A stretch of 63,525 nucleotides of DNA, filler included, from Bilabrum cf. latius (taxonomy: Eukaryota), in the NCBI GenBank assembly GCA_965178125.1. It is 3 parts of 3 records of this genome, joined end to end, with 100 filler letters (N's around TTAATTAATTAA, not from the genome) between each part and the next. Parts side by side here need not be neighbours in the genome. Positions count along the whole stretch, not along the records: positions 1 to 25,302 come from CBCXTV010000039.1; 2 more parts are not named here. One strand, 5' to 3'. The notes beneath the pieces are model-generated. The model was not told the DNA's origin and searched no databases. It worked only from the letters and a program-made list of their open reading frames with translations. The position numbers were made by a program, and so were the translations under genes. Of this stretch, positions 1 to 25,402 are shown in pieces. The stretch's first letter is position 1, and every line of letters starts with the position of its first letter.

Positions 1-605
1 ACCCTAACCCTAACCCTAACCCTAACCCTAACCCTAACCCTAACCCTAACCCTAACCCTAACCCTAACCCTAACCCTAACCCTAACCCTAACCCTAACCC
101 TAACCCTAACCCTAACCCTAACCCTAACCCTAACCCTAACCCTAACCCTAACCCTAACCCTAACCCTAACCCTAACCCTAACCCTAACCCTAACCCTAAC
201 CCTAACCCTAACCCTAACCCTAACCCTAACCCTAACCCTAACCCTAACCCTAACCCTAACCCTAACCCTAACCCTAACCCTAACCCTAACCCTAACCCTA
301 ACCCTAACCCTAACCCTAACCCTAACCCTAACCCTAACCCTAACCCTAACCCTAACCCTAACCCTAACCCTAACCCTAACCCTAACCCTAACCCTAACCC
401 TAACCCTAACCCTAACCCTAACCCTAACCCTAACCCTAACCCTAACCCTAACCCTAACCCTAACCCTAACCCTAACCCTAACCCTAACCCTAACCCTAAC
501 CCTAACCCTAACCCTAACCCTAACCCTAACCCTAACCCTAACCCTAACCCTAACCCTAACCCTAACCCTAACCCTAACCCTAACCCTAACCCTAACCCTA
601 ACCCT
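1..605 (+). repeat. Terminal telomeric repeat (CCCTAA)n, i.e. TTAGGG on the minus strand
   Basis: About 100 CCCTAA units at the very start of the contig, in left-chromosome-end orientation. Confidence 0.97.
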
Positions 606-3426
606 GGCAGCTGTCGGTGCGGAACCCTCCTCCGATGACGAGTGAAAAGCAGCCAGGCGGATGGCAATTGAGGTCAGTGGCAGCTGGGCCAGCTTGTGAG
701 AGGAGCTTGCCAAAGTGCCAGCCAGTGACCCGTTAGGACGGAATAGTAGGAGCCAAGAGGCATTCTGTTTAGTCTTGGCTGTCAGCCGATGAATACCTTA
801 AGTCAAAGCAATCCATCAATCGAATACAACGGTCATGTACACAATACCCATTCTACAATTGACGAATCCACAATGCATTCTACAGAGACAAGCAATTCTT
901 CATCCGGCCATATCGGCGCCGCGCGACAAAAACGGATCCTAATAAAATTTTGCCCCATGTTGTGCCCCAGGACCGACCCAATGCAGTTTGAATCATCTTC
1001 ATATCTACTCTGGTTGCCGAGATCTCAATTCCGTATTTTGGTCCACGAAACTCTTCATCCGGCCATATCGGCGCCGCGCGACAAAAACGGATCCTAATAA
1101 AATTTTGCCCCATGTTGTGCCCCAGGACCGACCCAATGCAGTTTGAATCATCTTCATATCTACTCTGGTTGCCGAGATCTCAATTCCGTATTTTGGTCCA
1201 CGAAACTCTTCATCCGGCCATATCGGCGCCGCGCGACAAAAACGGATCCTAATAAAATTTTGCCCCATGTTGTGCCCCAGGACCGACCCAATGCAGTTTG
1301 AATCATCTTCATATCTACTCTGGTTGCCGAGATCTCAATTCCGTATTTTGGTCCACGAAACTCTTCATCCGGCCATATCGGCGCCGCGCGACAAAAACGG
1401 ATCCTAATAAAATTTTGCCCCATGTTGTGCCCCAGGACCGACCCAATGCAGTTTGAATCATCTTCATATCTACTCTGGTTGCCGAGATCTCAATTCCGTA
1501 TTTTGGTCCACGAAACTCTTCATCCGGCCATATCGGCGCCGCGCGACAAAAACGGATCCTAATAAAATTTTGCCCCATGTTGTGCCCCAGGACCGACCCA
1601 ATGCAGTTTGAATCATCTTCATATCTACTCTGGTTGCCGAGATCTCAATTCCGTATTTTGGTCCACGAAACTCTTCATCCGGCCATATCGGCGCCGCGCG
1701 ACAAAAACGGATCCTAATAAAATTTTGCCCCATGTTGTGCCCCAGGACCGACCCAATGCAGTTTGAATCATCTTCATATCTACTCTGGTTGCCGAGATCT
1801 CAATTCCGTATTTTGGTCCACGAAACTCTTCATCCGGCCATATCGGCGCCGCGCGACAAAAACGGATCCTAATAAAATTTTGCCCCATGTTGTGCCCCAG
1901 GACCGACCCAATGCAGTTTGAATCATCTTCATATCTACTCTGGTTGCCGAGATCTCAATTCCGTATTTTGGTCCACGAAACTCTTCATCCGGCCATATCG
2001 GCGCCGCGCGACAAAAACGGATCCTAATAAAATTTTGCCCCATGTTGTGCCCCAGGACCGACCCAATGCAGTTTGAATCATCTTCATATCTACTCTGGTT
2101 GCCGAGATCTCAATTCCGTATTTTGGTCCACGAAACTCTTCATCCGGCCATATCGGCGCCGCGCGACAAAAACGGATCCTAATAAAATTTTGCCCCATGT
2201 TGTGCCCCAGGACCGACCCAATGCAGTTTGAATCATCTTCATATCTACTCTGGTTGCCGAGATCTCAATTCCGTATTTTGGTCCACGAAACTCTTCATCC
2301 GGCCATATCGGCGCCGCGCGACAAAAACGGATCCTAATAAAATTTTGCCCCATGTTGTGCCCCAGGACCGACCCAATGCAGTTTGAATCATCTTCATATC
2401 TACTCTGGTTGCCGAGATCTCAATTCCGTATTTTGGTCCACGAAACTCTTCATCCGGCCATATCGGCGCCGCGCGACAAAAACGGATCCTAATAAAATTT
2501 TGCCCCATGTTGTGCCCCAGGACCGACCCAATGCAGTTTGAATCATCTTCATATCTACTCTGGTTGCCGAGATCTCAATTCCGTATTTTGGTCCACGAAA
2601 CTCTTCATCCGGCCATATCGGCGCCGCGCGACAAAAACGGATCCTAATAAAATTTTGCCCCATGTTGTGCCCCAGGACCGACCCAATGCAGTTTGAATCA
2701 TCTTCATATCTACTCTGGTTGCCGAGATCTCAATTCCGTATTTTGGTCCACGAAACTCTTCATCCGGCCATATCGGCGCCGCGCGACAAAAACGGATCCT
2801 AATAAAATTTTGCCCCATGTTGTGCCCCAGGACCGACCCAATGCAGTTTGAATCATCTTCATATCTACTCTGGTTGCCGAGATCTCAATTCCGTATTTTG
2901 GTCCACGAAACTCTTCATCCGGCCATATCGGCGCCGCGCGACAAAAACGGATCCTAATAAAATTTTGCCCCATGTTGTGCCCCAGGACCGACCCAATGCA
3001 GTTTGAATCATCTTCATATCTACTCTGGTTGCCGAGATCTCAATTCCGTATTTTGGTCCACGAAACTCTTCATCCGGCCATATCGGCGCCGCGCGACAAA
3101 AACGGATCCTAATAAAATTTTGCCCCATGTTGTGCCCCAGGACCGACCCAATGCAGTTTGAATCATCTTCATATCTACTCTGGTTGCCGAGATCTCAATT
3201 CCGTATTTTGGTCCACGAAACTCTTCATCCGGCCATATCGGCGCCGCGCGACAAAAACGGATCCTAATAAAATTTTGCCCCATGTTGTGCCCCAGGACCG
3301 ACCCAATGCAGTTTGAATCATCTTCATATCTACTCTGGTTGCCGAGATCTCAATTCCGTATTTTGATGCAAAAAATGAAGATGAAAATATTTTTTCCTCG
3401 ACCCTGTCCCTGACTTTATATTAGAT
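606..3426 (+). mobile_element. Telomere-attached element, copy A (telomere-side truncated, about 2.8 kb)
   Basis: Matches the 3' part of copies B and D: ORF tail, unique spacer, 16 x 155 bp, and the fixed end GACCCTGTCCCTGACTTTATATTAGAT followed by CCCTAA. Confidence 0.8.
897..3365. repeat. 155-bp tandem array, 16 units (last slightly short)
   Basis: The CCCCATG landmark recurs every 155 bp from 958 to 3283; units look identical. Confidence 0.97.
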
Positions 3427-3644
3427 ACCCTAACCCTAACCCTAACCCTAACCCTAACCCTAACCCTAACCCTAACCCTAACCCTAACCCTAACCCTAAC
3501 CCTAACCCTAACCCTAACCCTAACCCTAACCCTAACCCTAACCCTAACCCTAACCCTAACCCTAACCCTAACCCTAACCCTAACCCTAACCCTAACCCTA
3601 ACCCTAACCCTAACCCTAACCCTAACCCTAACCCTAACCCTAAC
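3427..3644 (+). repeat. Interstitial telomeric tract (about 36 units)
   Basis: (CCCTAA)n between copies A and B. Confidence 0.95.
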
Positions 3645-3647
3645 TTA

Positions 3648-6600
3648 GTGGAGGAGCTGGCCGCGCCATTGACCAGGAGAAGAGGGGAGCAAGTGGCGCA
3701 AGGAGTGGAGCAGCAGCATCACTGCCTCGACAGGACTCTGAGGAAGATGAAGAGGAGATCGGTGGTCGGTACCACGCAGACGCAGCCGGAGAGGAGGACG
3801 AGGATGAAGCTCCGATAGGGCTCGTGCAGCAGGACGAGGAGGATGGGGACGAGCTGGATGAGGAAGAAGAGAACGAGGCCCAGAACCAGCAAGACGACTC
3901 TGAGAACGACGGTGGAGTGGAGGACAACGGCTTCACCGACTAGCAGCGGCACCTGGTGGACCGCATTCTCACTGCCTGCGATGACACCGCGCTGGGCGTC
4001 AGCCGGACTGTCGACGACATGGTCGAGGACGTGCAGGAAACAATTGCAGAGAGGGACCACGGATTGGGCATGCTCGCAGACCTGATGACGGCCCTCGAGA
4101 AGACGGCGGAAGGAGATCTCAATGCGGCAGACGTGGACGCTGTGGAGGCGCTCCTGGCAGCTGTCGGTGCGGAACCCTCCTCCGATGACGAGTGAAAAGC
4201 AGCCAGGCGGATGGCAATTGAGGTCAGTGGCAGCTGGGCCAGCTTGTGAGAGGAGCTTGCCAAAGTGCCAGCCAGTGACCCGTTAGGACGGAATAGTAGG
4301 AGCCAAGAGGCATTCTGTTTAGTCTTGGCTGTCAGCCGATGAATACCTTAAGTCAAAGCAATCCATCAATCGAATACAACGGTCATGTACACAATACCCA
4401 TTCTACAATTGACGAATCCACAATGCATTCTACAGAGACAAGCAATTCTTCATCCGGCCATATCGGCGCCGCGCGACAAAAACGGATCCTAATAAAATTT
4501 TGCCCCATGTTGTGCCCCAGGACCGACCCAATGCAGTTTGAATCATCTTCATATCTACTCTGGTTGCCGAGATCTCAATTCCGTATTTTGGTCCACGAAA
4601 CTCTTCATCCGGCCATATCGGCGCCGCGCGACAAAAACGGATCCTAATAAAATTTTGCCCCATGTTGTGCCCCAGGACCGACCCAATGCAGTTTGAATCA
4701 TCTTCATATCTACTCTGGTTGCCGAGATCTCAATTCCGTATTTTGGTCCACGAAACTCTTCATCCGGCCATATCGGCGCCGCGCGACAAAAACGGATCCT
4801 AATAAAATTTTGCCCCATGTTGTGCCCCAGGACCGACCCAATGCAGTTTGAATCATCTTCATATCTACTCTGGTTGCCGAGATCTCAATTCCGTATTTTG
4901 GTCCACGAAACTCTTCATCCGGCCATATCGGCGCCGCGCGACAAAAACGGATCCTAATAAAATTTTGCCCCATGTTGTGCCCCAGGACCGACCCAATGCA
5001 GTTTGAATCATCTTCATATCTACTCTGGTTGCCGAGATCTCAATTCCGTATTTTGGTCCACGAAACTCTTCATCCGGCCATATCGGCGCCGCGCGACAAA
5101 AACGGATCCTAATAAAATTTTGCCCCATGTTGTGCCCCAGGACCGACCCAATGCAGTTTGAATCATCTTCATATCTACTCTGGTTGCCGAGATCTCAATT
5201 CCGTATTTTGGTCCACGAAACTCTTCATCCGGCCATATCGGCGCCGCGCGACAAAAACGGATCCTAATAAAATTTTGCCCCATGTTGTGCCCCAGGACCG
5301 ACCCAATGCAGTTTGAATCATCTTCATATCTACTCTGGTTGCCGAGATCTCAATTCCGTATTTTGGTCCACGAAACTCTTCATCCGGCCATATCGGCGCC
5401 GCGCGACAAAAACGGATCCTAATAAAATTTTGCCCCATGTTGTGCCCCAGGACCGACCCAATGCAGTTTGAATCATCTTCATATCTACTCTGGTTGCCGA
5501 GATCTCAATTCCGTATTTTGGTCCACGAAACTCTTCATCCGGCCATATCGGCGCCGCGCGACAAAAACGGATCCTAATAAAATTTTGCCCCATGTTGTGC
5601 CCCAGGACCGACCCAATGCAGTTTGAATCATCTTCATATCTACTCTGGTTGCCGAGATCTCAATTCCGTATTTTGGTCCACGAAACTCTTCATCCGGCCA
5701 TATCGGCGCCGCGCGACAAAAACGGATCCTAATAAAATTTTGCCCCATGTTGTGCCCCAGGACCGACCCAATGCAGTTTGAATCATCTTCATATCTACTC
5801 TGGTTGCCGAGATCTCAATTCCGTATTTTGGTCCACGAAACTCTTCATCCGGCCATATCGGCGCCGCGCGACAAAAACGGATCCTAATAAAATTTTGCCC
5901 CATGTTGTGCCCCAGGACCGACCCAATGCAGTTTGAATCATCTTCATATCTACTCTGGTTGCCGAGATCTCAATTCCGTATTTTGGTCCACGAAACTCTT
6001 CATCCGGCCATATCGGCGCCGCGCGACAAAAACGGATCCTAATAAAATTTTGCCCCATGTTGTGCCCCAGGACCGACCCAATGCAGTTTGAATCATCTTC
6101 ATATCTACTCTGGTTGCCGAGATCTCAATTCCGTATTTTGGTCCACGAAACTCTTCATCCGGCCATATCGGCGCCGCGCGACAAAAACGGATCCTAATAA
6201 AATTTTGCCCCATGTTGTGCCCCAGGACCGACCCAATGCAGTTTGAATCATCTTCATATCTACTCTGGTTGCCGAGATCTCAATTCCGTATTTTGGTCCA
6301 CGAAACTCTTCATCCGGCCATATCGGCGCCGCGCGACAAAAACGGATCCTAATAAAATTTTGCCCCATGTTGTGCCCCAGGACCGACCCAATGCAGTTTG
6401 AATCATCTTCATATCTACTCTGGTTGCCGAGATCTCAATTCCGTATTTTGGTCCACGAAACTCTTCATCCGGCCATATCGGCGCCGCGCGACAAAAACGG
6501 ATCCTAATAAAATTTTGCCCCATGTTGTGCCCCAGGACCGACCCAATGCAGTTTGAATCATCTTCATATCTACTCTGGTTGCCGAGATCTCAATTCCGTA

Positions 6601-6976
6601 TTTTGGTCCACGAAACTCTTCATCCGGCCATATCGGCGCCGCGCGACAAAAACGGATCCTAATAAAATTTTGCCCCATGTTGTGCCCCAGGACCGACCCA
6701 ATGCAGTTTGAATCATCTTCATATCTACTCTGGTTGCCGAGATCTCAATTCCGTATTTTGGTCCACGAAACTCTTCATCCGGCCATATCGGCGCCGCGCG
6801 ACAAAAACGGATCCTAATAAAATTTTGCCCCATGTTGTGCCCCAGGACCGACCCAATGCAGTTTGAATCATCTTCATATCTACTCTGGTTGCCGAGATCT
6901 CAATTCCGTATTTTGATGCAAAAAATGAAGATGAAAATATTTTTTCCTCGACCCTGTCCCTGACTTTATATTAGAT
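3648..6976 (+). mobile_element. Telomere-attached element, copy B (about 3.3 kb)
   Basis: Matches 9942-13270 (offset 6294); contains the ORF fragment 3650-4195 and has the same fixed end. Confidence 0.8.
4447..6915. repeat. 155-bp tandem array, 16 units
   Basis: Same unit and count as 897-3365. Confidence 0.97.
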
Positions 6977-7001
6977 ACCCTAACCCTAACCCTAACCCTA
7001 A
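6977..7001 (+). repeat. Short interstitial telomeric tract (4 units)
   Basis: ACCCTAACCCTAACCCTAACCCTAA between copies B and C. Confidence 0.9.
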
Positions 7002-9482
7002 AATTTTGCCCCATGTTGTGCCCCAGGACCGACCCAATGCAGTTTGAATCATCTTCATATCTACTCTGGTTGCCGAGATCTCAATTCCGTATTTTGGTCC
7101 ACGAAACTCTTCATCCGGCCATATCGGCGCCGCGCGACAAAAACGGATCCTAATAAAATTTTGCCCCATGTTGTGCCCCAGGACCGACCCAATGCAGTTT
7201 GAATCATCTTCATATCTACTCTGGTTGCCGAGATCTCAATTCCGTATTTTGGTCCACGAAACTCTTCATCCGGCCATATCGGCGCCGCGCGACAAAAACG
7301 GATCCTAATAAAATTTTGCCCCATGTTGTGCCCCAGGACCGACCCAATGCAGTTTGAATCATCTTCATATCTACTCTGGTTGCCGAGATCTCAATTCCGT
7401 ATTTTGGTCCACGAAACTCTTCATCCGGCCATATCGGCGCCGCGCGACAAAAACGGATCCTAATAAAATTTTGCCCCATGTTGTGCCCCAGGACCGACCC
7501 AATGCAGTTTGAATCATCTTCATATCTACTCTGGTTGCCGAGATCTCAATTCCGTATTTTGGTCCACGAAACTCTTCATCCGGCCATATCGGCGCCGCGC
7601 GACAAAAACGGATCCTAATAAAATTTTGCCCCATGTTGTGCCCCAGGACCGACCCAATGCAGTTTGAATCATCTTCATATCTACTCTGGTTGCCGAGATC
7701 TCAATTCCGTATTTTGGTCCACGAAACTCTTCATCCGGCCATATCGGCGCCGCGCGACAAAAACGGATCCTAATAAAATTTTGCCCCATGTTGTGCCCCA
7801 GGACCGACCCAATGCAGTTTGAATCATCTTCATATCTACTCTGGTTGCCGAGATCTCAATTCCGTATTTTGGTCCACGAAACTCTTCATCCGGCCATATC
7901 GGCGCCGCGCGACAAAAACGGATCCTAATAAAATTTTGCCCCATGTTGTGCCCCAGGACCGACCCAATGCAGTTTGAATCATCTTCATATCTACTCTGGT
8001 TGCCGAGATCTCAATTCCGTATTTTGGTCCACGAAACTCTTCATCCGGCCATATCGGCGCCGCGCGACAAAAACGGATCCTAATAAAATTTTGCCCCATG
8101 TTGTGCCCCAGGACCGACCCAATGCAGTTTGAATCATCTTCATATCTACTCTGGTTGCCGAGATCTCAATTCCGTATTTTGGTCCACGAAACTCTTCATC
8201 CGGCCATATCGGCGCCGCGCGACAAAAACGGATCCTAATAAAATTTTGCCCCATGTTGTGCCCCAGGACCGACCCAATGCAGTTTGAATCATCTTCATAT
8301 CTACTCTGGTTGCCGAGATCTCAATTCCGTATTTTGGTCCACGAAACTCTTCATCCGGCCATATCGGCGCCGCGCGACAAAAACGGATCCTAATAAAATT
8401 TTGCCCCATGTTGTGCCCCAGGACCGACCCAATGCAGTTTGAATCATCTTCATATCTACTCTGGTTGCCGAGATCTCAATTCCGTATTTTGGTCCACGAA
8501 ACTCTTCATCCGGCCATATCGGCGCCGCGCGACAAAAACGGATCCTAATAAAATTTTGCCCCATGTTGTGCCCCAGGACCGACCCAATGCAGTTTGAATC
8601 ATCTTCATATCTACTCTGGTTGCCGAGATCTCAATTCCGTATTTTGGTCCACGAAACTCTTCATCCGGCCATATCGGCGCCGCGCGACAAAAACGGATCC
8701 TAATAAAATTTTGCCCCATGTTGTGCCCCAGGACCGACCCAATGCAGTTTGAATCATCTTCATATCTACTCTGGTTGCCGAGATCTCAATTCCGTATTTT
8801 GGTCCACGAAACTCTTCATCCGGCCATATCGGCGCCGCGCGACAAAAACGGATCCTAATAAAATTTTGCCCCATGTTGTGCCCCAGGACCGACCCAATGC
8901 AGTTTGAATCATCTTCATATCTACTCTGGTTGCCGAGATCTCAATTCCGTATTTTGGTCCACGAAACTCTTCATCCGGCCATATCGGCGCCGCGCGACAA
9001 AAACGGATCCTAATAAAATTTTGCCCCATGTTGTGCCCCAGGACCGACCCAATGCAGTTTGAATCATCTTCATATCTACTCTGGTTGCCGAGATCTCAAT
9101 TCCGTATTTTGGTCCACGAAACTCTTCATCCGGCCATATCGGCGCCGCGCGACAAAAACGGATCCTAATAAAATTTTGCCCCATGTTGTGCCCCAGGACC
9201 GACCCAATGCAGTTTGAATCATCTTCATATCTACTCTGGTTGCCGAGATCTCAATTCCGTATTTTGGTCCACGAAACTCTTCATCCGGCCATATCGGCGC
9301 CGCGCGACAAAAACGGATCCTAATAAAATTTTGCCCCATGTTGTGCCCCAGGACCGACCCAATGCAGTTTGAATCATCTTCATATCTACTCTGGTTGCCG
9401 AGATCTCAATTCCGTATTTTGATGCAAAAAATGAAGATGAAAATATTTTTTCCTCGACCCTGTCCCTGACTTTATATTAGAT
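6999..9482 (+). mobile_element. Telomere-attached element, copy C (truncated inside the first 155-bp unit; array 6999-9421)
   Basis: Starts at TAAAATTTTGCCCC, contains 16 CCCCATG landmarks, and has the same fixed end. Confidence 0.8.
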
Positions 9483-9696
9483 ACCCTAACCCTAACCCTA
9501 ACCCTAACCCTAACCCTAACCCTAACCCTAACCCTAACCCTAACCCTAACCCTAACCCTAACCCTAACCCTAACCCTAACCCTAACCCTAACCCTAACCC
9601 TAACCCTAACCCTAACCCTAACCCTAACCCTAACCCTAACCCTAACCCTAACCCTAACCCTAACCCTAACCCTAACCTAACCCTAACCCTAACCCT
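9483..9696 (+). repeat. Interstitial telomeric tract (about 35 units, one CCTAA variant)
   Basis: (CCCTAA)n between copies C and D. Confidence 0.95.
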
Positions 9697-9697
9697 G

Positions 9698-10489
9698 ACC
9701 GATCGAGCATACGCCGATCTTCTCAGGGCCAAGCGGGCGGCGGAGGCTAAGAGAAAGGACAAGGCCAAGGCCAAGGCCAAGGCCTTGGCAAAGGCTGCGG
9801 GCAAGTCGAAGGGCAAGTCGAAGGGCAAGGCGATGGGCACGGCTGCCGAACCGGCAGAACCAGAGGGCAGGGAGTCGGATGAAACCGTACCTCGGTCTAA
9901 GAGGCAGCCCAAGCGATCGGCCGTCCTCGGACGAGGCTACGGTGGAGGAGCTGGCCGCGCCATTGACCAGGAGAAGAGGGGAGCAAGTGGCGCAAGGAGT
10001 GGAGCAGCAGCATCACTGCCTCGACAGGACTCTGAGGAAGATGAAGAGGAGATCGGTGGTCGGTACCACGCAGACGCAGCCGGAGAGGAGGACGAGGATG
10101 AAGCTCCGATAGGGCTCGTGCAGCAGGACGAGGAGGATGGGGACGAGCTGGATGAGGAAGAAGAGAACGAGGCCCAGAACCAGCAAGACGACTCTGAGAA
10201 CGACGGTGGAGTGGAGGACAACGGCTTCACCGACTAGCAGCGGCACCTGGTGGACCGCATTCTCACTGCCTGCGATGACACCGCGCTGGGCGTCAGCCGG
10301 ACTGTCGACGACATGGTCGAGGACGTGCAGGAAACAATTGCAGAGAGGGACCACGGATTGGGCATGCTCGCAGACCTGATGACGGCCCTCGAGAAGACGG
10401 CGGAAGGAGATCTCAATGCGGCAGACGTGGACGCTGTGGAGGCGCTCCTGGCAGCTGTCGGTGCGGAACCCTCCTCCGATGACGAGTGA
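9698..10489 (+). CDS. C-terminal fragment of the element's unknown protein (Lys/Ala-rich, then acidic, then helical), interrupted by one in-frame TAG at 10235-10237
   Basis: The frame is open from the telomere junction (TDRAYADLLRAK...). Track ORFs 9785-10237 and 10250-10489 are in the same frame, and the codons are GC3-rich. No family recognised. Confidence 0.55.
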
Positions 10490-10740
10490 AAAGCAGCCAG
10501 GCGGATGGCAATTGAGGTCAGTGGCAGCTGGGCCAGCTTGTGAGAGGAGCTTGCCAAAGTGCCAGCCAGTGACCCGTTAGGACGGAATAGTAGGAGCCAA
10601 GAGGCATTCTGTTTAGTCTTGGCTGTCAGCCGATGAATACCTTAAGTCAAAGCAATCCATCAATCGAATACAACGGTCATGTACACAATACCCATTCTAC
10701 AATTGACGAATCCACAATGCATTCTACAGAGACAAGCAAT

Positions 10741-13209
10741 TCTTCATCCGGCCATATCGGCGCCGCGCGACAAAAACGGATCCTAATAAAATTTTGCCCC
10801 ATGTTGTGCCCCAGGACCGACCCAATGCAGTTTGAATCATCTTCATATCTACTCTGGTTGCCGAGATCTCAATTCCGTATTTTGGTCCACGAAACTCTTC
10901 ATCCGGCCATATCGGCGCCGCGCGACAAAAACGGATCCTAATAAAATTTTGCCCCATGTTGTGCCCCAGGACCGACCCAATGCAGTTTGAATCATCTTCA
11001 TATCTACTCTGGTTGCCGAGATCTCAATTCCGTATTTTGGTCCACGAAACTCTTCATCCGGCCATATCGGCGCCGCGCGACAAAAACGGATCCTAATAAA
11101 ATTTTGCCCCATGTTGTGCCCCAGGACCGACCCAATGCAGTTTGAATCATCTTCATATCTACTCTGGTTGCCGAGATCTCAATTCCGTATTTTGGTCCAC
11201 GAAACTCTTCATCCGGCCATATCGGCGCCGCGCGACAAAAACGGATCCTAATAAAATTTTGCCCCATGTTGTGCCCCAGGACCGACCCAATGCAGTTTGA
11301 ATCATCTTCATATCTACTCTGGTTGCCGAGATCTCAATTCCGTATTTTGGTCCACGAAACTCTTCATCCGGCCATATCGGCGCCGCGCGACAAAAACGGA
11401 TCCTAATAAAATTTTGCCCCATGTTGTGCCCCAGGACCGACCCAATGCAGTTTGAATCATCTTCATATCTACTCTGGTTGCCGAGATCTCAATTCCGTAT
11501 TTTGGTCCACGAAACTCTTCATCCGGCCATATCGGCGCCGCGCGACAAAAACGGATCCTAATAAAATTTTGCCCCATGTTGTGCCCCAGGACCGACCCAA
11601 TGCAGTTTGAATCATCTTCATATCTACTCTGGTTGCCGAGATCTCAATTCCGTATTTTGGTCCACGAAACTCTTCATCCGGCCATATCGGCGCCGCGCGA
11701 CAAAAACGGATCCTAATAAAATTTTGCCCCATGTTGTGCCCCAGGACCGACCCAATGCAGTTTGAATCATCTTCATATCTACTCTGGTTGCCGAGATCTC
11801 AATTCCGTATTTTGGTCCACGAAACTCTTCATCCGGCCATATCGGCGCCGCGCGACAAAAACGGATCCTAATAAAATTTTGCCCCATGTTGTGCCCCAGG
11901 ACCGACCCAATGCAGTTTGAATCATCTTCATATCTACTCTGGTTGCCGAGATCTCAATTCCGTATTTTGGTCCACGAAACTCTTCATCCGGCCATATCGG
12001 CGCCGCGCGACAAAAACGGATCCTAATAAAATTTTGCCCCATGTTGTGCCCCAGGACCGACCCAATGCAGTTTGAATCATCTTCATATCTACTCTGGTTG
12101 CCGAGATCTCAATTCCGTATTTTGGTCCACGAAACTCTTCATCCGGCCATATCGGCGCCGCGCGACAAAAACGGATCCTAATAAAATTTTGCCCCATGTT
12201 GTGCCCCAGGACCGACCCAATGCAGTTTGAATCATCTTCATATCTACTCTGGTTGCCGAGATCTCAATTCCGTATTTTGGTCCACGAAACTCTTCATCCG
12301 GCCATATCGGCGCCGCGCGACAAAAACGGATCCTAATAAAATTTTGCCCCATGTTGTGCCCCAGGACCGACCCAATGCAGTTTGAATCATCTTCATATCT
12401 ACTCTGGTTGCCGAGATCTCAATTCCGTATTTTGGTCCACGAAACTCTTCATCCGGCCATATCGGCGCCGCGCGACAAAAACGGATCCTAATAAAATTTT
12501 GCCCCATGTTGTGCCCCAGGACCGACCCAATGCAGTTTGAATCATCTTCATATCTACTCTGGTTGCCGAGATCTCAATTCCGTATTTTGGTCCACGAAAC
12601 TCTTCATCCGGCCATATCGGCGCCGCGCGACAAAAACGGATCCTAATAAAATTTTGCCCCATGTTGTGCCCCAGGACCGACCCAATGCAGTTTGAATCAT
12701 CTTCATATCTACTCTGGTTGCCGAGATCTCAATTCCGTATTTTGGTCCACGAAACTCTTCATCCGGCCATATCGGCGCCGCGCGACAAAAACGGATCCTA
12801 ATAAAATTTTGCCCCATGTTGTGCCCCAGGACCGACCCAATGCAGTTTGAATCATCTTCATATCTACTCTGGTTGCCGAGATCTCAATTCCGTATTTTGG
12901 TCCACGAAACTCTTCATCCGGCCATATCGGCGCCGCGCGACAAAAACGGATCCTAATAAAATTTTGCCCCATGTTGTGCCCCAGGACCGACCCAATGCAG
13001 TTTGAATCATCTTCATATCTACTCTGGTTGCCGAGATCTCAATTCCGTATTTTGGTCCACGAAACTCTTCATCCGGCCATATCGGCGCCGCGCGACAAAA
13101 ACGGATCCTAATAAAATTTTGCCCCATGTTGTGCCCCAGGACCGACCCAATGCAGTTTGAATCATCTTCATATCTACTCTGGTTGCCGAGATCTCAATTC
13201 CGTATTTTG
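10741..13209. repeat. 155-bp tandem array, 16 units
   Basis: Same unit and count as the other arrays. Confidence 0.97.
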
Positions 13210-13270
13210 ATGCAAAAAATGAAGATGAAAATATTTTTTCCTCGACCCTGTCCCTGACTTTATATTAGAT

Positions 13271-13295
13271 ACCCTAACCCTAACCCTAACCCTAA
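13271..13295 (+). repeat. Short interstitial telomeric tract (4 units)
   Basis: Identical to 6977-7001 including both junctions. Confidence 0.9.
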
Positions 13296-14796
13296 AATTT
13301 TGCCCCATGTTGTGCCCCAGGACCGACCCAATGCAGTTTGAATCATCTTCATATCTACTCTGGTTGCCGAGATCTCAATTCCGTATTTTGGTCCACGAAA
13401 CTCTTCATCCGGCCATATCGGCGCCGCGCGACAAAAACGGATCCTAATAAAATTTTGCCCCATGTTGTGCCCCAGGACCGACCCAATGCAGTTTGAATCA
13501 TCTTCATATCTACTCTGGTTGCCGAGATCTCAATTCCGTATTTTGGTCCACGAAACTCTTCATCCGGCCATATCGGCGCCGCGCGACAAAAACGGATCCT
13601 AATAAAATTTTGCCCCATGTTGTGCCCCAGGACCGACCCAATGCAGTTTGAATCATCTTCATATCTACTCTGGTTGCCGAGATCTCAATTCCGTATTTTG
13701 GTCCACGAAACTCTTCATCCGGCCATATCGGCGCCGCGCGACAAAAACGGATCCTAATAAAATTTTGCCCCATGTTGTGCCCCAGGACCGACCCAATGCA
13801 GTTTGAATCATCTTCATATCTACTCTGGTTGCCGAGATCTCAATTCCGTATTTTGGTCCACGAAACTCTTCATCCGGCCATATCGGCGCCGCGCGACAAA
13901 AACGGATCCTAATAAAATTTTGCCCCATGTTGTGCCCCAGGACCGACCCAATGCAGTTTGAATCATCTTCATATCTACTCTGGTTGCCGAGATCTCAATT
14001 CCGTATTTTGGTCCACGAAACTCTTCATCCGGCCATATCGGCGCCGCGCGACAAAAACGGATCCTAATAAAATTTTGCCCCATGTTGTGCCCCAGGACCG
14101 ACCCAATGCAGTTTGAATCATCTTCATATCTACTCTGGTTGCCGAGATCTCAATTCCGTATTTTGGTCCACGAAACTCTTCATCCGGCCATATCGGCGCC
14201 GCGCGACAAAAACGGATCCTAATAAAATTTTGCCCCATGTTGTGCCCCAGGACCGACCCAATGCAGTTTGAATCATCTTCATATCTACTCTGGTTGCCGA
14301 GATCTCAATTCCGTATTTTGGTCCACGAAACTCTTCATCCGGCCATATCGGCGCCGCGCGACAAAAACGGATCCTAATAAAATTTTGCCCCATGTTGTGC
14401 CCCAGGACCGACCCAATGCAGTTTGAATCATCTTCATATCTACTCTGGTTGCCGAGATCTCAATTCCGTATTTTGGTCCACGAAACTCTTCATCCGGCCA
14501 TATCGGCGCCGCGCGACAAAAACGGATCCTAATAAAATTTTGCCCCATGTTGTGCCCCAGGACCGACCCAATGCAGTTTGAATCATCTTCATATCTACTC
14601 TGGTTGCCGAGATCTCAATTCCGTATTTTGGTCCACGAAACTCTTCATCCGGCCATATCGGCGCCGCGCGACAAAAACGGATCCTAATAAAATTTTGCCC
14701 CATGTTGTGCCCCAGGACCGACCCAATGCAGTTTGAATCATCTTCATATCTACTCTGGTTGCCGAGATCTCAATTCCGTATTTTGGTCCACGAAAC
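13293..14796 (+). mobile_element. Telomere-attached element, copy E (about 10 x 155-bp units, cut off by the bacterial junction)
   Basis: Same start as copy C; the repeat match ends at CACGAAAC (14796). Confidence 0.75.
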
Positions 14797-16293
14797 ATCA
14801 TTGGAGTAGACATGCAAGACTACCTCAATGATCGTAAAGAGCTTAATAGTGTTGTGCGAGTATTGGAACAAACTTCAGGCTTCTTAAATGCACAAAACCG
14901 AAAGGAATCTGAAGCTTTAACCGATATCTGGATAACCCCTAAAATTCCCTGGGCAGGCATTACCACTTTCGGTCGATTTCGGGAGATTGTCGATGCCGGA
15001 GAAGCTGAAGCCCGCAAGCATTTCGATGATTTAAAAAGACTAGCGCAAAAAGATAAGCAAGCGGAAAAACCTATCGCTAAGGCTACTCCTAAACAGGAAA
15101 TTCTGGTGCAAAGCATCCAGGTAAATGGGCTGCGCAGTTTAACCAGCAATTTCGTAAAAGGGAAACTTCGCGTAAGAGAAGGAAGACCTTGCTCGGTAAA
15201 AAAACTAGAACGCGGTTTAGATCAACTTTATGGCACTAAGTATTTTGATAACATTGATTATACACTTTCTCCGGCCGCCGATTCCGGCTACGTCCTAAAC
15301 ATCAATCTACGCGAGAAGGATTACTATCAGCAGCTAAATGCAGGCATCAACTATAGCGATGATTTTAATGCTGCATTATTAGTAAACTACACTAATAGAA
15401 ACCTCCTCTTTAAAAACTCACGACTAAGTGTGGACCTCGCATTGGGAGATATGCCGCGCGGGGAGATCAGCTATTTCGTAGATCGAGGATATATCCCAAC
15501 CCTTGGTCTCAAGCTTCGGAGCTATCGCTTTCGATACAACAACTTCGAAAATCGCATGGCTACCAATGAAAACATCTATCAGGACTACAGTCTTGATCTA
15601 TTCCTGCAGTCCACCTGGCGGGATGCTTATGCTATTGGTGGCGGTGTGCAGCTTGAAGACATTGGTATTAATCAAAATTTTGACCTGGGTGTCCCTACAG
15701 AATTCCAGAAAGGATTTATCAACTATTATGGCTTTATCGATTTCGACTCCTTCGACGATGCCGAGTTCCCACGAAAGGGGATTCAGTTAAGCGCGCGCTA
15801 TCGTATTATCTCCGAAAGGGAAGGCTTGGAAACATTTCTGGAACCCAGCTCGGTGCTAGACATCTTATATAAGCAGGCTATTAGTTTTGGTCCAAAATGG
15901 GGCATGACTTTCCAGATGTTTGGTGCCTCCACCATTGGTCCGGGGCTAGATGATCCCTACCGCATCTACCTGGGAAGCATGGGGCAATCCTATATCAATT
16001 ATATCCAACCTTTTATTGGCTATCAACTCATGGAACTAAGCGGGAATAATGCCTTAACCCTTAGAGCCGATTTCCGTTATGAAGCCTTTAAGAATCACTA
16101 CTTCAAGTTTAAAATGAACTATGGGAGGCTAGAGGCTCGCTTTGAAGATCTGATCAATTCGGACATCCTCTTGGATGGATACAGCATCGGATATAGCTAC
16201 CAGTCTATCATTGGTCCACTAGAGTTAAACTTAATGGCCAGCACTAATCACCCCGACATTTTCGCTTATGTGCGCTTAGGATTTTGGTTCTGA
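14797..16293 (+). CDS. 5'-truncated patatin-like phospholipase with POTRA and outer-membrane beta-barrel (PlpD-like architecture), bacterial
   Basis: Begins IIGVDMQD (patatin C-terminal motif), has a POTRA-like IQVNGL...LYGTKYFDNIDY segment, and ends in a barrel with terminal GFWF. The catalytic N-terminus is missing. Confidence 0.8.
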   Translation: MIGVDMQDYLNDRKELNSVVRVLEQTSGFLNAQNRKESEALTDIWITPKIPWAGITTFGRFREIVDAGEAEARKHFDDLKRLAQKDKQAEKPIAKATPKQEILVQSIQVNGLRSLTSNFVKGKLRVREGRPCSVKKLERGLDQLYGTKYFDNIDYTLSPAADSGYVLNINLREKDYYQQLNAGINYSDDFNAALLVNYTNRNLLFKNSRLSVDLALGDMPRGEISYFVDRGYIPTLGLKLRSYRFRYNNFENRMATNENIYQDYSLDLFLQSTWRDAYAIGGGVQLEDIGINQNFDLGVPTEFQKGFINYYGFIDFDSFDDAEFPRKGIQLSARYRIISEREGLETFLEPSSVLDILYKQAISFGPKWGMTFQMFGASTIGPGLDDPYRIYLGSMGQSYINYIQPFIGYQLMELSGNNALTLRADFRYEAFKNHYFKFKMNYGRLEARFEDLINSDILLDGYSIGYSYQSIIGPLELNLMASTNHPDIFAYVRLGFWF

Positions 16294-16299
16294 TTTTTT

Positions 16300-16356
16300 A
16301 ATTGACCAACTGTTCAGTTAAAGGTTTTTTATTTACCTTTGACCAGTCGTTCAATT
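16300..16356 (+). promoter_or_regulatory. Two imperfect palindromes (probable TetR operators) overlapping a Bacteroidota -7 promoter element
   Basis: TTGACCAACTGTTCAG (16302) and TTGACCAGTCGTTCAA (16339); TACCTTTG at 16334-16341 fits TAnnTTTG; directly upstream of the tetR gene. Confidence 0.6.
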
Positions 16357-16360
16357 AAAA

Positions 16361-16936
16361 ATGAGTCCACGATCTAACGAACAGAATGAAGCCCAACGCG
16401 CTCAAACTCGCGCCCTGATTCTTCAAACTGCATTAAAGGCTTTTGCTGAAAAGGGTTATTCCGCGGCAAGCATCAGCTATATCGCAAAGGAAGCGGGTAT
16501 ATCCAAAGGCCTTACCTATCACTATTTTGAGAATAAGGAGGCCTTACTATTTGGCATTTTCGAAATGCTGGCCGGCATGGCAGATGGAATTGAAGCACAA
16601 TGGGAGGGAAAGAATGCCAAAGAAAAGCTGCTCACCACAATTGAAATGACCTTTCAGTTTTTTGATCAGCAACCCGATACGGTGCGCTTTATGACTGCCT
16701 TGGCTTTACAGCCGGAAGTTACCGCCAGTATCAAGGAAATACTCATGAAACAGAAAGCGATGAATATTGAGGTTTATGAAGCCTTATTCGCCGAGCTCGG
16801 CTTTTCGCAACCCAAATTAGAAGCCTTTGCCTTCGGGGCTCTACTGGATGGAGTTGCGCTGGGAAGCCTGGCCCTTGAGCAGGAGTATCCTCTGGAAGAA
16901 ATGAAAACAATGATCTTAACTAAATATGACCTATGA
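16361..16936 (+). CDS. TetR/AcrR family transcriptional regulator
   Basis: N-terminal HTH: ILQTALKAFAEKGY...IAKEAGISKGLTYHYFENKEALL. Confidence 0.93.
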   Translation: MSPRSNEQNEAQRAQTRALILQTALKAFAEKGYSAASISYIAKEAGISKGLTYHYFENKEALLFGIFEMLAGMADGIEAQWEGKNAKEKLLTTIEMTFQFFDQQPDTVRFMTALALQPEVTASIKEILMKQKAMNIEVYEALFAELGFSQPKLEAFAFGALLDGVALGSLALEQEYPLEEMKTMILTKYDL

Positions 16937-17673
16937 AAACAACTGTGCTAAGTTTATTGCTTCTATTCACTAGCTCTGTGCTTGCTCAAGACCCTTTGGA
17001 GATCGTTCAAAAAACGGAAGACAAACTCCGGGGAGAGCAATCTTTTGCGGAAATGAGCATGACCATAGTCAGACCCAGTTGGAGTCGCACTATTAAGATG
17101 AAAAGTTGGAGCAGAGGAACCGACTTTTCTTTGATCCTTATTACTGCTCCTGCCAGAGATAAGGGAACGGTTTTCCTAAAAAAGCGCAAGGAGATCTATA
17201 ATTGGATTCCCAGCATCGAGCGCCAAATCAAATTACCGCCAAGCATGATGAACCAAAGCTGGATGGGATCTGATTTTACCAACGACGATCTGGTTACTGA
17301 ATCCTCTTTGGTAAACGACTACAACCACAAGCTTCTTGGGGAACTTGAAATTGCCGGAAGAAAAGCCTGGCAAATAGAATTGGTACCAAAAGAGAATGCC
17401 GCCGTGGTATGGGGTCGCGTAGTGCTGCACATTGATCAGGCGGAATACCTACACCTTCGTACGGAGTTCTTCGACGAAGAAGGAGATTTAGTGAGCATTA
17501 TGGAGGCCAAGAAGATTGGTACTCTTGGAGGAAAGACCCTCCCCACGAAGGTGGAAATGCAACCGGTGGGCGAAGAAGGCAAGAAGACTATTCTTGAATA
17601 CCAGGCTCTTGACTTCAATGTGAATATTCCTCGGGAACATTTCACGACACAATACATGAAACGAGTACGTTAA
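16933..17673 (+). CDS. Outer membrane lipoprotein-sorting (LolA-like) protein
   Basis: Signal peptide, PARDKGTVFLK and SWMGSDFTNDDL motifs, and operon context with ABC permeases. Confidence 0.85.
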   Translation: MKTTVLSLLLLFTSSVLAQDPLEIVQKTEDKLRGEQSFAEMSMTIVRPSWSRTIKMKSWSRGTDFSLILITAPARDKGTVFLKKRKEIYNWIPSIERQIKLPPSMMNQSWMGSDFTNDDLVTESSLVNDYNHKLLGELEIAGRKAWQIELVPKENAAVVWGRVVLHIDQAEYLHLRTEFFDEEGDLVSIMEAKKIGTLGGKTLPTKVEMQPVGEEGKKTILEYQALDFNVNIPREHFTTQYMKRVR

Positions 17674-17674
17674 G

Positions 17675-18894
17675 ATGATACTCAAAATTGCCTGGAGAAA
17701 CATATGGCGCAACAAACGAAGGAGCCTTATTACCCTGGCTTCGGTGGCCTTTGCCCTATTCTTCGCTATTGTCATGCGAAGTATGCAAATAGGCACCTAT
17801 GACTTGGCCTACTCCTCTGTTATTAACGCAACCACTGGTTACATGCAGTGGCAAGGAGAGGGTTATTGGGAAAAACAGAGCTTAGAGCGAAGCCTGGCCC
17901 CGCAGAAGGAGGTACGATCAGCCTTGCTGGAGCATCCGGATGTTGAAGCTCTTCTTCCGCGTTTAGAAAGCTTCGCCTTAATTGCCTCTGACTATAGTGA
18001 TACAAAACCTGGCTTCTTAAAAGGGGTAAACAGCGCATTGGAAAGCGAGCATTTTAACCTCGATGAAAAGCTTCTGGAGGGCAGGCTTCCTGGGAATGGT
18101 GAACGTGGCGTGATGCTGGCCTCGAAACTTGCAGAAAACCTTAAAGTTGGGGTTGGAGATACCCTGGTGATAATTGGACAGGGATTTCAAGGGATGAGCG
18201 CCAATGGAAAGTACCCTATTATTGGTATCGCCGACTTAAAAAACCCAGTAGCAAACAAAAGCACTGTTTATCTGGATTTACAAGAGCTTCAATTCTTAAC
18301 CGGGGCTTTTGAGCGGGTAACATCAGAAGTCATTATTCCGCAAATCCTGATAAATTGATTCAATTAAAGGAGAGTTTAGAACCTTTAACCGACACTGCCA
18401 CCAGCGATCTTATGACCTGGCAGGAAATGATGCCCGAATTAATCGAGGCCATGGAGGCAGATAGCGCTGGTGGTATGGCCATTCTGATAATTCTCTATTT
18501 GGTGATTGGTTTCGGTGTTTTCGGTACCATTTTGATGCTAACCGCCGAAAGGAAGCCGGAGTATGGCATCTTGCTCTCTATTGGTATGAGCCGCGGTCGA
18601 ATGGCCTTCACCTCTTTTTTGGAGATGGGCTTCCTTGGTTTTCTTGGCATTATTGCCGGTAGTTTGATGGCTCTACCACTTACCCTCTATTATCACTACA
18701 ACCCCATTGAATTAGCCGGGGACATGGACGCCATGATGGAAGATTATGGCATGGAACCGCTTCTACCCTTCAGTGTAGACCCCAATATTTGGTTTAGCCA
18801 TGGAATGACCATGCTAGTAATCACCCTCCTGCTAAGTCTTTATGCCGTGATCACCATTTACCGATTAAACCCTGTAAAAGCTATGCGCCGATGA
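17675..18894 (+). CDS. FtsX/LolE-like ABC transporter permease 1 (frameshift near 18340)
   Basis: AWRNIWRNKRRSLIT N-terminus and ERKPEYGILLSIGM...LNPVKAMRR C-terminus lie in two overlapping ORFs; one added base restores the frame. Confidence 0.88.
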
Positions 18895-20110
18895 AAACCT
18901 TAGTGAAAATAGCTTGGCGCAATATCTGGCGCCATCGCCTTCGGAGTCTGGTGGTCATTATATCGATCATCCTGGGAATTTGGGCAGGCATCTTTGTAAG
19001 TGCTTTAAGCTTTGGGCTTAATGATCAGCGCAAGGAAAGTATGATCCTTAATCAGATTTCCCACATTCAACTACACCATCCGGAATGGAGTGAGGAACAA
19101 GGCATCGAATTCCTGCTGAAAGAGGAAAGTGCCTTGCAGAATTGGGTCGAAGATCGTCCTAATCTGAAACATACCTTCCGCCTTAAAGCGATGGGATGGC
19201 TGCGACAGCTCATTATGCCGGTGGAGTGCAAATCATTGGAATCAACGCTGATCAAGAAGCTGAATTGACAGGATTAGGAAGTAGAGTTGATAGTGGAAGC
19301 TACCTCAATGACGAAGGGCGAAATCCCATTCTAATTGGTGCTGCCTTGGCAGAAAAGCTTGAAGTGAAACCAGGCTCTAAGGTCATTCTCAGCTTTAGTG
19401 ATCAAAATCAGGATTTGATTTCTGCATCTTTCAAAGTCCGGGGCATTTATCATGATGTGTCATCCCAATTGGAAAAACTACAGGTTTATATCCGCGCTAA
19501 TGACCTACAGAATCTTTTAGGCCTGGAGGCTTCACAATACCATGAGATGGCCTTGCTGCTAGAAGATGATCAGGAAACTGAAAGCCTGCGAGAGGAATTG
19601 CAGGCAAACTTCCCGGATTTAAAAGTAGAATCCTGGAAACAGCTTGCACCTGAATTGGCTTATGCCGATGAGATTATGACCCAGGCGCTGTATTTCATAA
19701 TTGGCATTATCATGCTCGCACTCTCCTTCGGAATTATCAACACTATGTTGATGGCCGTGCTTGAGCGCCGCAAGGAGCTCGGTGTTTTAATGAGTGTAGG
19801 TATGAGCAAGAGAAGGGTTTTCTCTATGGTAATTCTCGAGACCTTCTTTCTGGCCCTGCTTAGTGGGCCATTGGGCATCCTTGCGGGCTATTTCAGTGTT
19901 AGTGGTACTGCTCAAACCGGGCTAAATCTCTCTATGTACAGTGATGGTTTAGCCAGCTACGGTATAGGCACGATCATCTATCCGGTCCTACCGGATAGCT
20001 TCTACTTCGGTACTGGAATCATTGTATTTGTGATGACTATTCTGGCCGCAATCTATCCGGCGCGACATGCGCTTAAATTGAATCCTATCGAAACCATGCG
20101 AACGCTTTAA
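18891..20110 (+). CDS. FtsX/LolE-like ABC transporter permease 2 (frameshift near 19195)
   Basis: AWRNIWRHRLRS and INTMLMAVLERRKELGVLMSVGM motifs; one G missing in ATGGGATGG. Confidence 0.88.
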
Positions 20111-20119
20111 AATAATATC

Positions 20120-20803
20120 ATGTCTGTAATCGAAACCCAAAACCTAAGTCGTATCTATCAGGATGGCGACAGCATAATAAGAGCGGTAGACCAGGTCAGT
20201 CTGTCTGTAGAGGCAGGAGAGTTTATCGCGATAATCGGTCCTTCAGGCTCCGGTAAAACCACCTTATTAAACCTTATTGGTGGTTTAGATAGCCCCAGCG
20301 AAGGAACGGTCAGCGTGGATGGAAAAGCCATTCATCAACTTAAGGATAATGAGCTGATAAACTTTCGTTTGGCCCACATCGGGTTTGTCTTCCAGGCTTA
20401 CAATCTAATTCCGGTATTGACGGCCCAGGAAAATGTGGAATTCATTATGCTTCTCCAGGGCAAATCTTCTGAGGAACGTGAAAGCAGAGCACGTGAATTA
20501 CTTAATGCTGTCGGGCTATCTGATCAAATGCATAAGAGGCCTACCGAGCTTAGCGGTGGTCAACAACAGCGGGTAGCTGTAGCCCGAGCTTTGGCCTCAA
20601 AACCAAGTTTCGTTCTGGCCGATGAACCCACTGCAAACCTGGACTCTAAGAGCACCGAAGACCTCTTGGATATCATGCATCGATTAAACAAAGAAGAAGG
20701 CATTACCTTCTTGTTTTCTACTCATGATCAAAGGGTGATCGATCGCGCGGAGAGATTGATATATGTAGAAGACGGTAAAATAAAAAGCGATAAAAAACAG
20801 TGA
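20120..20803 (+). CDS. ABC transporter ATP-binding protein (LolD/MacB-like)
   Basis: Walker A GPSGSGKT, signature LSGGQQQRV, Walker B VLADEPTANLD. Confidence 0.95.
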   Translation: MSVIETQNLSRIYQDGDSIIRAVDQVSLSVEAGEFIAIIGPSGSGKTTLLNLIGGLDSPSEGTVSVDGKAIHQLKDNELINFRLAHIGFVFQAYNLIPVLTAQENVEFIMLLQGKSSEERESRARELLNAVGLSDQMHKRPTELSGGQQQRVAVARALASKPSFVLADEPTANLDSKSTEDLLDIMHRLNKEEGITFLFSTHDQRVIDRAERLIYVEDGKIKSDKKQ

Positions 20804-21978: not shown

Positions 21979-21989
21979 AACCTTACACC

Positions 21990-25058: not shown

Positions 25059-25302
25059 AACCCTCTAAATCTTTCTGAAACAAAATTGATTGTTGAGGGT
25101 CGAATGGGCCTAAATCTTTCGACTAGGGGCTTTTTTCATACGATTATCGGTCTGACTTATAGGATTGTACTATGCTCTTCAAAGCTTTTTTTTGCAATGT
25201 TCGGTACGGTGGCATCTGCTGCTGGATAGCCCACCGGGAGCAATAAGAAGGGCTTTTGGTGAGTCGGTCGACCGAGAATTTCGGCCAGAAAATTCATTGG
25301 GC

Positions 25303-25402
25303 NNNNNNNNNNNNNNNNNNNNNNNNNNNNNNNNNNNNNNNNNNNNTTAATTAATTAANNNNNNNNNNNNNNNNNNNNNNNNNNNNNNNNNNNNNNNNNN
25401 NN
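25303..25402. other. Artificial contig linker
   Basis: 44 N + TTAATTAATTAA (stops in all six frames) + 44 N. Confidence 0.97.

Follow-up and report, generated by a model that had tools for sequence, protein, structure and literature searches.

Telomere-attached elements of one polarity, with two orphan genes and no recognised reverse transcriptase, in Bilabrum cf. latius

In a 63,525-nucleotide stretch of DNA from the protist Bilabrum cf. latius (the window; assembly GCA_965178125.1), tracts of the telomere repeat CCCTAA alternate with five copies of one element, family A, all on the same strand. The locus raises the question of how an element comes to be stacked between telomere tracts and what copies it. 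The array opens C82, a single 25.3-kb contig (CBCXTV010000039.1, window positions 1–25302) of a 48.6-Mb assembly of 111 contigs; its tracts hold 100, 36, 4, ~35, and 4 repeats, and copies 1 to 5 start at 603–606, 3648, 6999, 9697, and 13293. Four of the five close with the junction ...CTTTATATTAGAT-ACCCTAA (at 3426, 6976, 9482, and 13270) and no poly(A), as an earlier note on this DNA had described. We report that family A is a genome-wide, telomere-restricted family with many copies duplicated as DNA, and we tentatively suggest, at a little under an even chance, that new copies arise by end-primed copying.

Distribution and polarity of family A

A 34-nt pattern spanning the fixed-end junction matches the assembly 230 times (98 forward, 132 reverse) and its reversed control not once, so these matches are not due to chance. 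Among the 100 junctions listed of the 230, 99 lie at contig ends in a single polarity, the ends of C5, C10, C13, C16, and C26 being placed by lengths inferred from size order. The sole exception, C14:701367, adjoins a 200-N scaffold gap and is therefore no counter-example to terminal polarity; the surrounding region (C14:699412–701400), where the gap puts a left-end telomere array next to host genes in mid-chromosome, is likely a mis-scaffolded end. Matches to the body of the element agree: all 40 that were scored, of 70 candidates, fall within ~50 kb of a contig end at 83–100% identity, on the plus strand at left ends and on the minus strand at right ends. About nine subfamilies were seen. 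The telomere association, the single polarity, and the fixed end that the earlier note proposed from one locus thus extend beyond it, and copies lying off telomeres or lacking the fixed end, which it had named as evidence against its reading, were not found at the level of the family. Its suggestion that the family is undescribed accords with a literature search that returned no description, a weak result since the search was made without the host name.

The same note's picture of a chromosome end with a centromere side was not confirmed. From 14795–14797 on, C82 is 99.96% identical (4496 nt compared, of 10.5 kb) to OZ257133.1, titled Croceimicrobium sp. MAG, and the join halves a patatin-like gene whose N-terminal half continues upstream in OZ257133.1. 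C82 is a chimera of a telomere array and Croceimicrobium DNA, so the window has no centromere side and an artefactual join truncates copy 5. Positions 602–6977 of the window, comprising copies 1 and 2 with their tract, are identical to C35:2455–8830 (6376 nt). The 4-repeat junction shared by copies 3 and 5 gives two matches in the assembly, both in C82, and that part is therefore without independent support, which for the five-copy order covers copies 1 and 2 only.

Bacterial DNA meets telomere arrays at five places, two of them matched to one Croceimicrobium genome. The left end of C14 (C14:1–3441) includes a piece 100% identical to that genome (841/842 nt), and AT-rich pieces with bacterial-looking open reading frames (ORFs) occur at C35:1–1669, C15:1–3802, and the right end of C20. 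Such chimeras at telomere ends are a repeated artefact of this assembly.

Anatomy, conserved end, and orphan genes

The longest copies of family A measure 14.4 kb (C25), 13.6 kb (C28 right end), and 11.4 kb (C36 right end); one copy on C8 reaches 31.8 kb owing to expanded tail repeats. From telomere to centromere the order is far end, ORF-B, spacer, ORF-A, subfamily-specific repeats, 155-bp array, and fixed end. Five copies extend to the far end of ORF-B. Beyond it the sequence varies, with 839-bp units that each close with three telomere repeats on C36 and at the right end of C25, and an inverted 22-bp array at the left end of C25; the far ends of C25 and of C36/C25 right differ, and neither a true far terminus nor a second conserved end was found among them. 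About 250 nt upstream of ORF-A (for example in locus L044), most subfamilies carry a degenerate unit with an A box, a B box, and a T-run, which we take to be tRNA-like. ARAGORN made no call there, and in some subfamilies the 5' part of the unit is replaced by an 11/22-bp repeat array.

The fixed end is sharply conserved. Its last 45 alignment columns are 97.9% identical between subfamilies, versus 73.7–81.3% in the four preceding windows of the alignment (14 representatives, some sharing a subfamily), and the sequence right beside it remains subfamily-specific. The T-ACCCTAA register of the junction is also the commonest terminal register: five of eight telomere-ended contigs begin with ACCCTAA, and the C14 end that is fused to bacterial DNA starts in the same way.

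Family A encodes two divergent orphan ORFs, open only if TAG is a sense codon. ORF-A (509–526 aa) has Lys-rich, acidic, and helical parts, and its 522-aa form contains one in-frame TAG. It reads toward the centromere, as the earlier note stated of the element's ORF, and the statement fails for the larger ORF-B (2328 aa), which reads toward the telomere. Nine intact ORF-A variants are 70–82% identical to the first, and the ratio of nonsynonymous to synonymous substitution rates (dN/dS) is 0.54 overall, 0.39 in the N-terminal part, and 0.88 in the C-terminal part. For ORF-B, dN/dS is 0.19 (1800 columns, six copies). Both ORFs are under purifying selection.

Neither protein resembles a characterised one in the databases searched. 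ORF-B has no match in Pfam, PHROGs, or PDB sequences at E≤10 and none of near length among 7999 candidates; against 1.84 billion representatives it gave six matches, all 97–99% identical fragments, and the four looked up are unnamed singletons. ORF-A gave a single sub-threshold, low-complexity Pfam match, no homologue among 2190 candidates or in metagenome or viral contigs, and no usable Atlas match for residues 1–175. AlphaFold models are of low confidence (predicted local distance difference test scores of 40 and 43) and Foldseek returned nothing at E≤0.001, results that are uninformative on fold. Short identical pieces of ORF-A occur at low depth in runs X6 and X8, which are RNA by guess and are not counted as expression; no GT..AG ends appear among the joints listed.

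The TAG codon is sense elsewhere in this genome too. Among matches to host retroelements, the codon for the invariant Gln in RT motif B' (RT, reverse transcriptase) is TAG in 25 and CAA or CAG in 16, these being copies of few families, and the cadherin and TERT genes read through TAG. Judging from these codons (for example in L042:4555–9999, L122:605–5905, and window 10235), TAG stands for Gln in the host, and TAA appears still to be a stop. UAG as Gln with UAA as stop is reported in Iotanema and some ciliates (PMC11687900). Such a combination would be a rare nuclear code, here in a protist. An actin search gave named matches of at most 84% and did not settle the wider placement of the host; that it is a bacterivorous stramenopile is a guess.

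Relations among copies and the route of copying

In 24 sampled end regions we compared 85 segments with the fixed end, 71 of them capped distally by telomere repeats. The 71 capped copies resolve into 36 truncation points, of which 19 are singletons and 17 are common to 52 copies, and seven truncation scars were each found on two different ends. Retained lengths range from 45 to 14395 nt, with a median of 2.4 kb. On C36 a four-element 12.2-kb block occurs three times, with tracts of 46/92/31/142, 43/92/31/144, and 43/93/31/143 repeats, and on C17 a 7.8-kb block is repeated with near-identical tract lengths. These shared scars and blocks are DNA-level duplication, as described for MoTeR arrays (10.1101/845669), and the earlier idea of one priming round per copy does not hold, since, of the 71 capped copies, 52 have a truncation scar in common with at least one other. 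In the window itself, a block composed of a copy with only the 155-bp array, a 4-repeat tract, and a longer copy occurs twice with differing distal truncations, so copying passed through the tract with the array as template. Subfamilies look mosaic, being 96–99% identical in the ORF-B region and 80–85% in the ORF-A region.

The earlier note was also right on telomerase-type healing. Imperfect repeats such as CCCTAC or CCCAAA occur at ~20 of 35 distal truncation junctions, and an intact TERT gene lies on C4 (C4:1605605–1610905, L122). Microhomology at truncations is not enriched (p=0.11, n=35); this test and the scar count are crude, several junctions having been misplaced by single-nucleotide polymorphisms. 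Imperfect repeats without microhomology enrichment are consistent with de novo capping. The TERT gene forms a single frame of 1767 codons; a long (Ala-Gly)n stretch is inserted in it, and its RT motifs are separated by large inserts.

Based on these features, the account that we tentatively favour combines end-primed, MoTeR2- or Terminon-like copying by a non-recognised RT with telomerase healing and recombinational amplification. In this account family A is a selfish element that works in two tiers. The sequence itself shows the architecture, the polarity, the selection on coding sequence, the duplication, and the telomerase gene, and from these we infer the RNA intermediate, the enzyme, and the order of events. 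In the first tier, a new copy would begin at a natural chromosome end, where a transcript ending ...UAGAU-ACCCUAA would pair with the G-strand end and be copied from the conserved 45-nt terminus by an RT that may be very diverged, encoded elsewhere in the genome, or telomerase itself. Synthesis would mostly halt after a few kilobases, and telomerase would cap the non-telomeric end, leaving imperfect first repeats. In the second tier, which is visible as a pattern, truncated copies and multi-copy blocks, with their scars and tracts, are duplicated as DNA within and between ends, by displacement-loop (D-loop)/break-induced replication (BIR) or unequal exchange. The window's array is mostly of the second tier: copy 5, the 4-repeat tract, and copy 4 would have been recopied as copy 3, the 4-repeat tract, and copy 2, with a deeper truncation, followed by copy 1. 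The conserved end, its register, and the spread of truncations favour a cis-acting end and low-processivity copying, without proving an RNA step.

Several results weigh against this account. Family A yielded no RT in searches with Pfam, PHROGs, and PDB sequences or with an RT profile of our own making, and none of the 84 RVT_1 matches in the genome (from 88 candidates) falls inside the sampled arrays. About 33 of the 84 were translated, and we class these as L1-, CRE-, or DIRS-like from familiar motifs; their loci share the element's end at no more than chance level. A hammerhead ribozyme was detected neither by Rfam at E≤1 (four 10-kb loci, two with fixed ends) nor by a core-motif scan of nine segments on both strands, in which no candidate has a stem II of at least 3 bp. 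The fixed end forms no stable structure (-5 to -7 kcal/mol), the tracts beside it range from 4 to 355 repeats without a peak at a short RNA-borne length, and ORF-B is antisense to the presumed RNA. Moreover, all of the structural features could also come from recombination, breakage, and healing.

The reach of these searches bears on how they are read. The RVT_1 search missed TERT and is thus blind to RTs of the grade of TERT or Penelope-like elements (PLEs); a TERT-core query matched only itself. The home-made profile was derived from 13 host RTs, TERT added or omitted; on 3400 frames from end regions it found nothing except one CRE-like copy, its reach being moderate (left-out TERT was recovered at E=0.042 and left-out DIRS was missed). 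Given this reach, the element may still encode a diverged RT. RT-like motifs seen by eye in ORF-B (LLSMDLG, ERDDEF) found no support in the profile search, and Pfam shows no helicase in the element. The extension to a longer master and the profile searches that the earlier note called for delivered copies of 11–14 kb and neither RT nor hammerhead, and RNA-templated copying stays inferential.

Recombination with no RNA step is the strongest rival, somewhat less likely than end-primed copying and not far behind it. Family A would then be a two-gene subtelomeric cassette like yeast Y' or Chlamydomonas Sultan: a telomere would invade an internal tract and copy the sequence distal to it, so that every copy would start automatically at the fixed end, truncations would reflect breakage or erosion followed by telomerase, and the 45-nt end would be a protein-binding site or the product of short-tract conversion. 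The missing RT and ribozyme, the 52 DNA-level duplicates, the passage of copying through telomere tracts in window copies 2–5, the mosaic subfamilies, and the divergent ORFs, which suit a DNA cassette, all speak for it, and Sultan arrays are attributed to sister chromatid exchange (SCE)/BIR and healing (PMC8287924). However, it would require a break every few kilobases in non-telomeric sequence (36 points, median 2.4 kb), and it predicts neither a sharp 45-nt conserved end beside subfamily-specific sequence nor several unrelated families in one register. Yeast BIR seldom ends at non-telomeric seeds (PMC7736798), whereas family A ends every few kilobases, which we count in favour of end-primed synthesis.

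We consider it unlikely that several unrelated, RT-less, gene-bearing elements here exploit the telomere machinery itself, with RNA ends that imitate the template of telomerase in the natural terminal register (GAU-ACCCUAA); the copying would then fall to telomerase, or to the 2100–2300-aa orphan proteins if these hold a polymerase fold that went unrecognised. Telomerase RNA retrotranscription is the topic of PMC2246262. Endonuclease-driven insertion into tracts, of the MoTeR2/SART kind, appears decidedly unlikely. Here a host CRE-like RT with a restriction-like endonuclease would nick the repeat at a fixed register and copy family A in trans, and the distal repeats would be the other half of the target rather than healing. 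The genome does hold several CRE-like RT families, the CRE-like MoTeR1 targets telomeres, and a fixed register with a conserved 3' end fits, but the CRE-like copies read are dispersed, with other terminal sequences and no terminus in common with family A, and the frequent imperfect repeats at distal junctions look more like de novo addition. Still more improbable is DNA end-joining, in which the conserved end of a linear double-stranded element is ligated, possibly by the 2328-aa protein, onto a natural blunt telomere, after which the free end is eroded and healed. It would explain the natural terminal register at the junction, the divergent genes, and the 22-bp array inverted at both sides of the C25 subfamily, like a remnant terminal inverted repeat; against it stand the lack of a second conserved end, the absence of a detected recombinase, polymerase, or ligase domain, and a strict one-end polarity that demands an extra assumption.

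It is very improbable that assembly or library artefacts account for the entire structure. In favour of this, C82 is chimeric, bacterial pieces sit on four other ends, and no other contig has the copy 3/5 junction. Against it stand the 230 junctions, some nine diverged subfamilies whose intact ORFs are under selection, the identical recurrence of copies 1–2 on C35, and coverage of 30/30 element bins, deepest near the ORF-A end, in run X2 (which may be the source sample) and, thinly, of 24/30 in run X3 from another study.

The window, other element families, and known systems

All features of the window array lie on the plus strand. The terminal tract (1–605; ~100 CCCTAA repeats, beginning 5'-ACCCTAA) overlaps copy 1 by 3 nt (CCT). 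Copy 1 (603–3426; identical on C35) consists of the final 42 nt of ORF-A, a 252-nt spacer, a 155-bp tandem array of 15.9 identical units (897–3365), and the 61-bp fixed end (3366–3426, recurring at 6916–6976, 9422–9482, and 13210–13270). A tract of 36 repeats with a short imperfect healing scar (3427–3647; equal in length on C35) separates it from copy 2 (3648–6976), truncated within ORF-A. Next come a 4-repeat tract (6977–7001), its junction repeated at 13271–13295 and nowhere else in the assembly, and copy 3 (6999–9482), with only the 155-bp array and the fixed end. A tract of ~35 repeats with one CCTAA variant (9483–9696) leads to copy 4 (9697–13270), the longest of the window, which matches the 13.6-kb C28 right-end copy from that copy's position 9916 and holds the C-terminal 263 codons of ORF-A (9698–10489; full length 522 aa), including the TAG at 10235, putatively Gln. 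Beyond another 4-repeat tract (13271–13295), copy 5 (13293–14796) duplicates copy 3 up to the chimeric join. Further 155-bp arrays lie at 4447–6915, 6999–9421, 10741–13209, and 13293–14796, those of copies 1 to 5 comprising 15.9, 15.9, 15.6, 15.9, and 9.7 units. Copies 1–3 are exact substrings of copy 4 anchored at the fixed end (0 mismatches), and copy 5 matches copy 3 without mismatch across 1504 nt.

The bacterial DNA outside the element (14797–25302, plus strand) encodes the POTRA/Omp85 C-terminal half of the patatin-like gene and TetR, LolA-like, and ABC-type genes. Window positions 25402–63525, after an N spacer, are a separate GC-rich sequence that is not on C82; its long minus-strand ORFs (31336–38994 and 28688–31354) look integrase- and RT-like by eye, and retrotransposon-like.

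At least two other kinds of element, unrelated to family A, share its polarity. Family D, 10 kb long and attached to telomeres, has a fixed end of its own, GATGGTACTGTAA-CCCTAA (C35:9335–18600, locus L052; C14; and C20), and relatives on C15, C8, C2, C22, and C41. Its 2140–2170-aa orphan ORF reads toward the centromere, has no Pfam or PHROGs match, and is not significantly similar to ORF-B (best E=0.019); between its two subfamilies, identity is ~70% across the ORF and 95% over the final 1.47 kb. A 53-bp repeat opens family D copies (C15:4955, C8 right, C2 right) and also the innermost subtelomeric segments on C14, C8, C36, and C15, where it is followed by sequence 90% like the family D 3' region; these segments are possibly old, deleted family D copies. 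Families B and C comprise short elements whose tails are tandem repeats of 331 and 339 bp and whose ends are CCCCCAGAT-ACCCTAA and CCCCCTGAT-ACCCTAA. Their 34 matches (for example C30 right, C14:19251–20942, and C37:1027–1694) include no long or coding copy and share GAT-ACCCTAA with family A.

In architecture, family A may be called MoTeR2- or Terminon-like, with no RT–restriction-enzyme-like endonuclease (RT-REL), hammerhead, poly(A), or helicase found. As described for MoTeR1 and MoTeR2 of Magnaporthe and FoTeR of Fusarium (10.1101/845669, PMC12857005), it forms head-to-tail arrays, split in those fungi by TTAGGG tracts, in which 5' ends face the terminus, most copies are truncated, and tandem repeats occur internally; a short shared 3' terminus, D-loop/BIR block amplification, and de novo healing are also in common. 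Its 45-nt end can be likened to the 77-bp 3' end common to MoTeR1 and the non-autonomous MoTeR2 (10.1101/845669). Unlike those elements, family A has long tracts (4–355 repeats); we found no RT-REL ORF in it, and the ~33 of 84 RVT_1 matches read include no autonomous partner. It also combines 11–14 kb with two selected orphan ORFs, where MoTeR2 is described as ~1.7 kb long, its unrelated 786-bp core having no evident role. The endonuclease-less PLEs Athena and Coprina and the Terminons are likewise reported as large, multi-ORF, 5'-truncated, and repeat-capped, in long subterminal chains with the 3' end flush with reverse-complement telomeric repeats (PMC6431247, 10.1101/2021.04.23.441226). In family A, by contrast, no PLE-type RT, hammerhead, or listed accessory Pfam domain was found and the largest ORF is antisense.

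Drosophila HeT-A and TART are end-attached, polarised, and 5'-truncated, and HeT-A lacks an RT of its own. Family A resembles them in end attachment, polarity, and 5' truncation, and ORF-A could be gag-like by composition only; it differs in having no poly(A) junction, a telomerase, and no zinc-knuckle or other Pfam match. Yeast Y' elements are of the subtelomeric, one-orientation, recombination-amplified type, from which family A departs in lacking a Pfam helicase and in not being mostly full-length (36 truncation points, 45 nt to 14.4 kb). Sultan and Subtile of Chlamydomonas are described as subtelomere-restricted, in one orientation, in recombination-amplified and telomerase-healed blocks as in family A, Sultan being an 850-bp repeat without interspersed sequence (PMC8287924). 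Compared with Y' and Sultan, nearly every family A copy is truncated at its own point and true telomere tract lies between copies.

At least three unrelated kinds of element occupy many chromosome ends of one telomerase-positive protist, with large orphan proteins under selection and no RT found. To our knowledge, the other telomere-specialised systems, in flies, rotifers, fungi, and some protists, have an RT that can be recognised, either within the element or in a partner. If RT-less elements with telomerase-mimicking RNA ends did exist here, they would form a class of mobile element without a known transposition enzyme. If an RNA step exists, its enzyme would be unusual, or telomerase. If none exists, family A would be a natural case of recombination and healing giving a retrotransposon-like pattern, and a caution against reading such a pattern as proof of retrotransposition.

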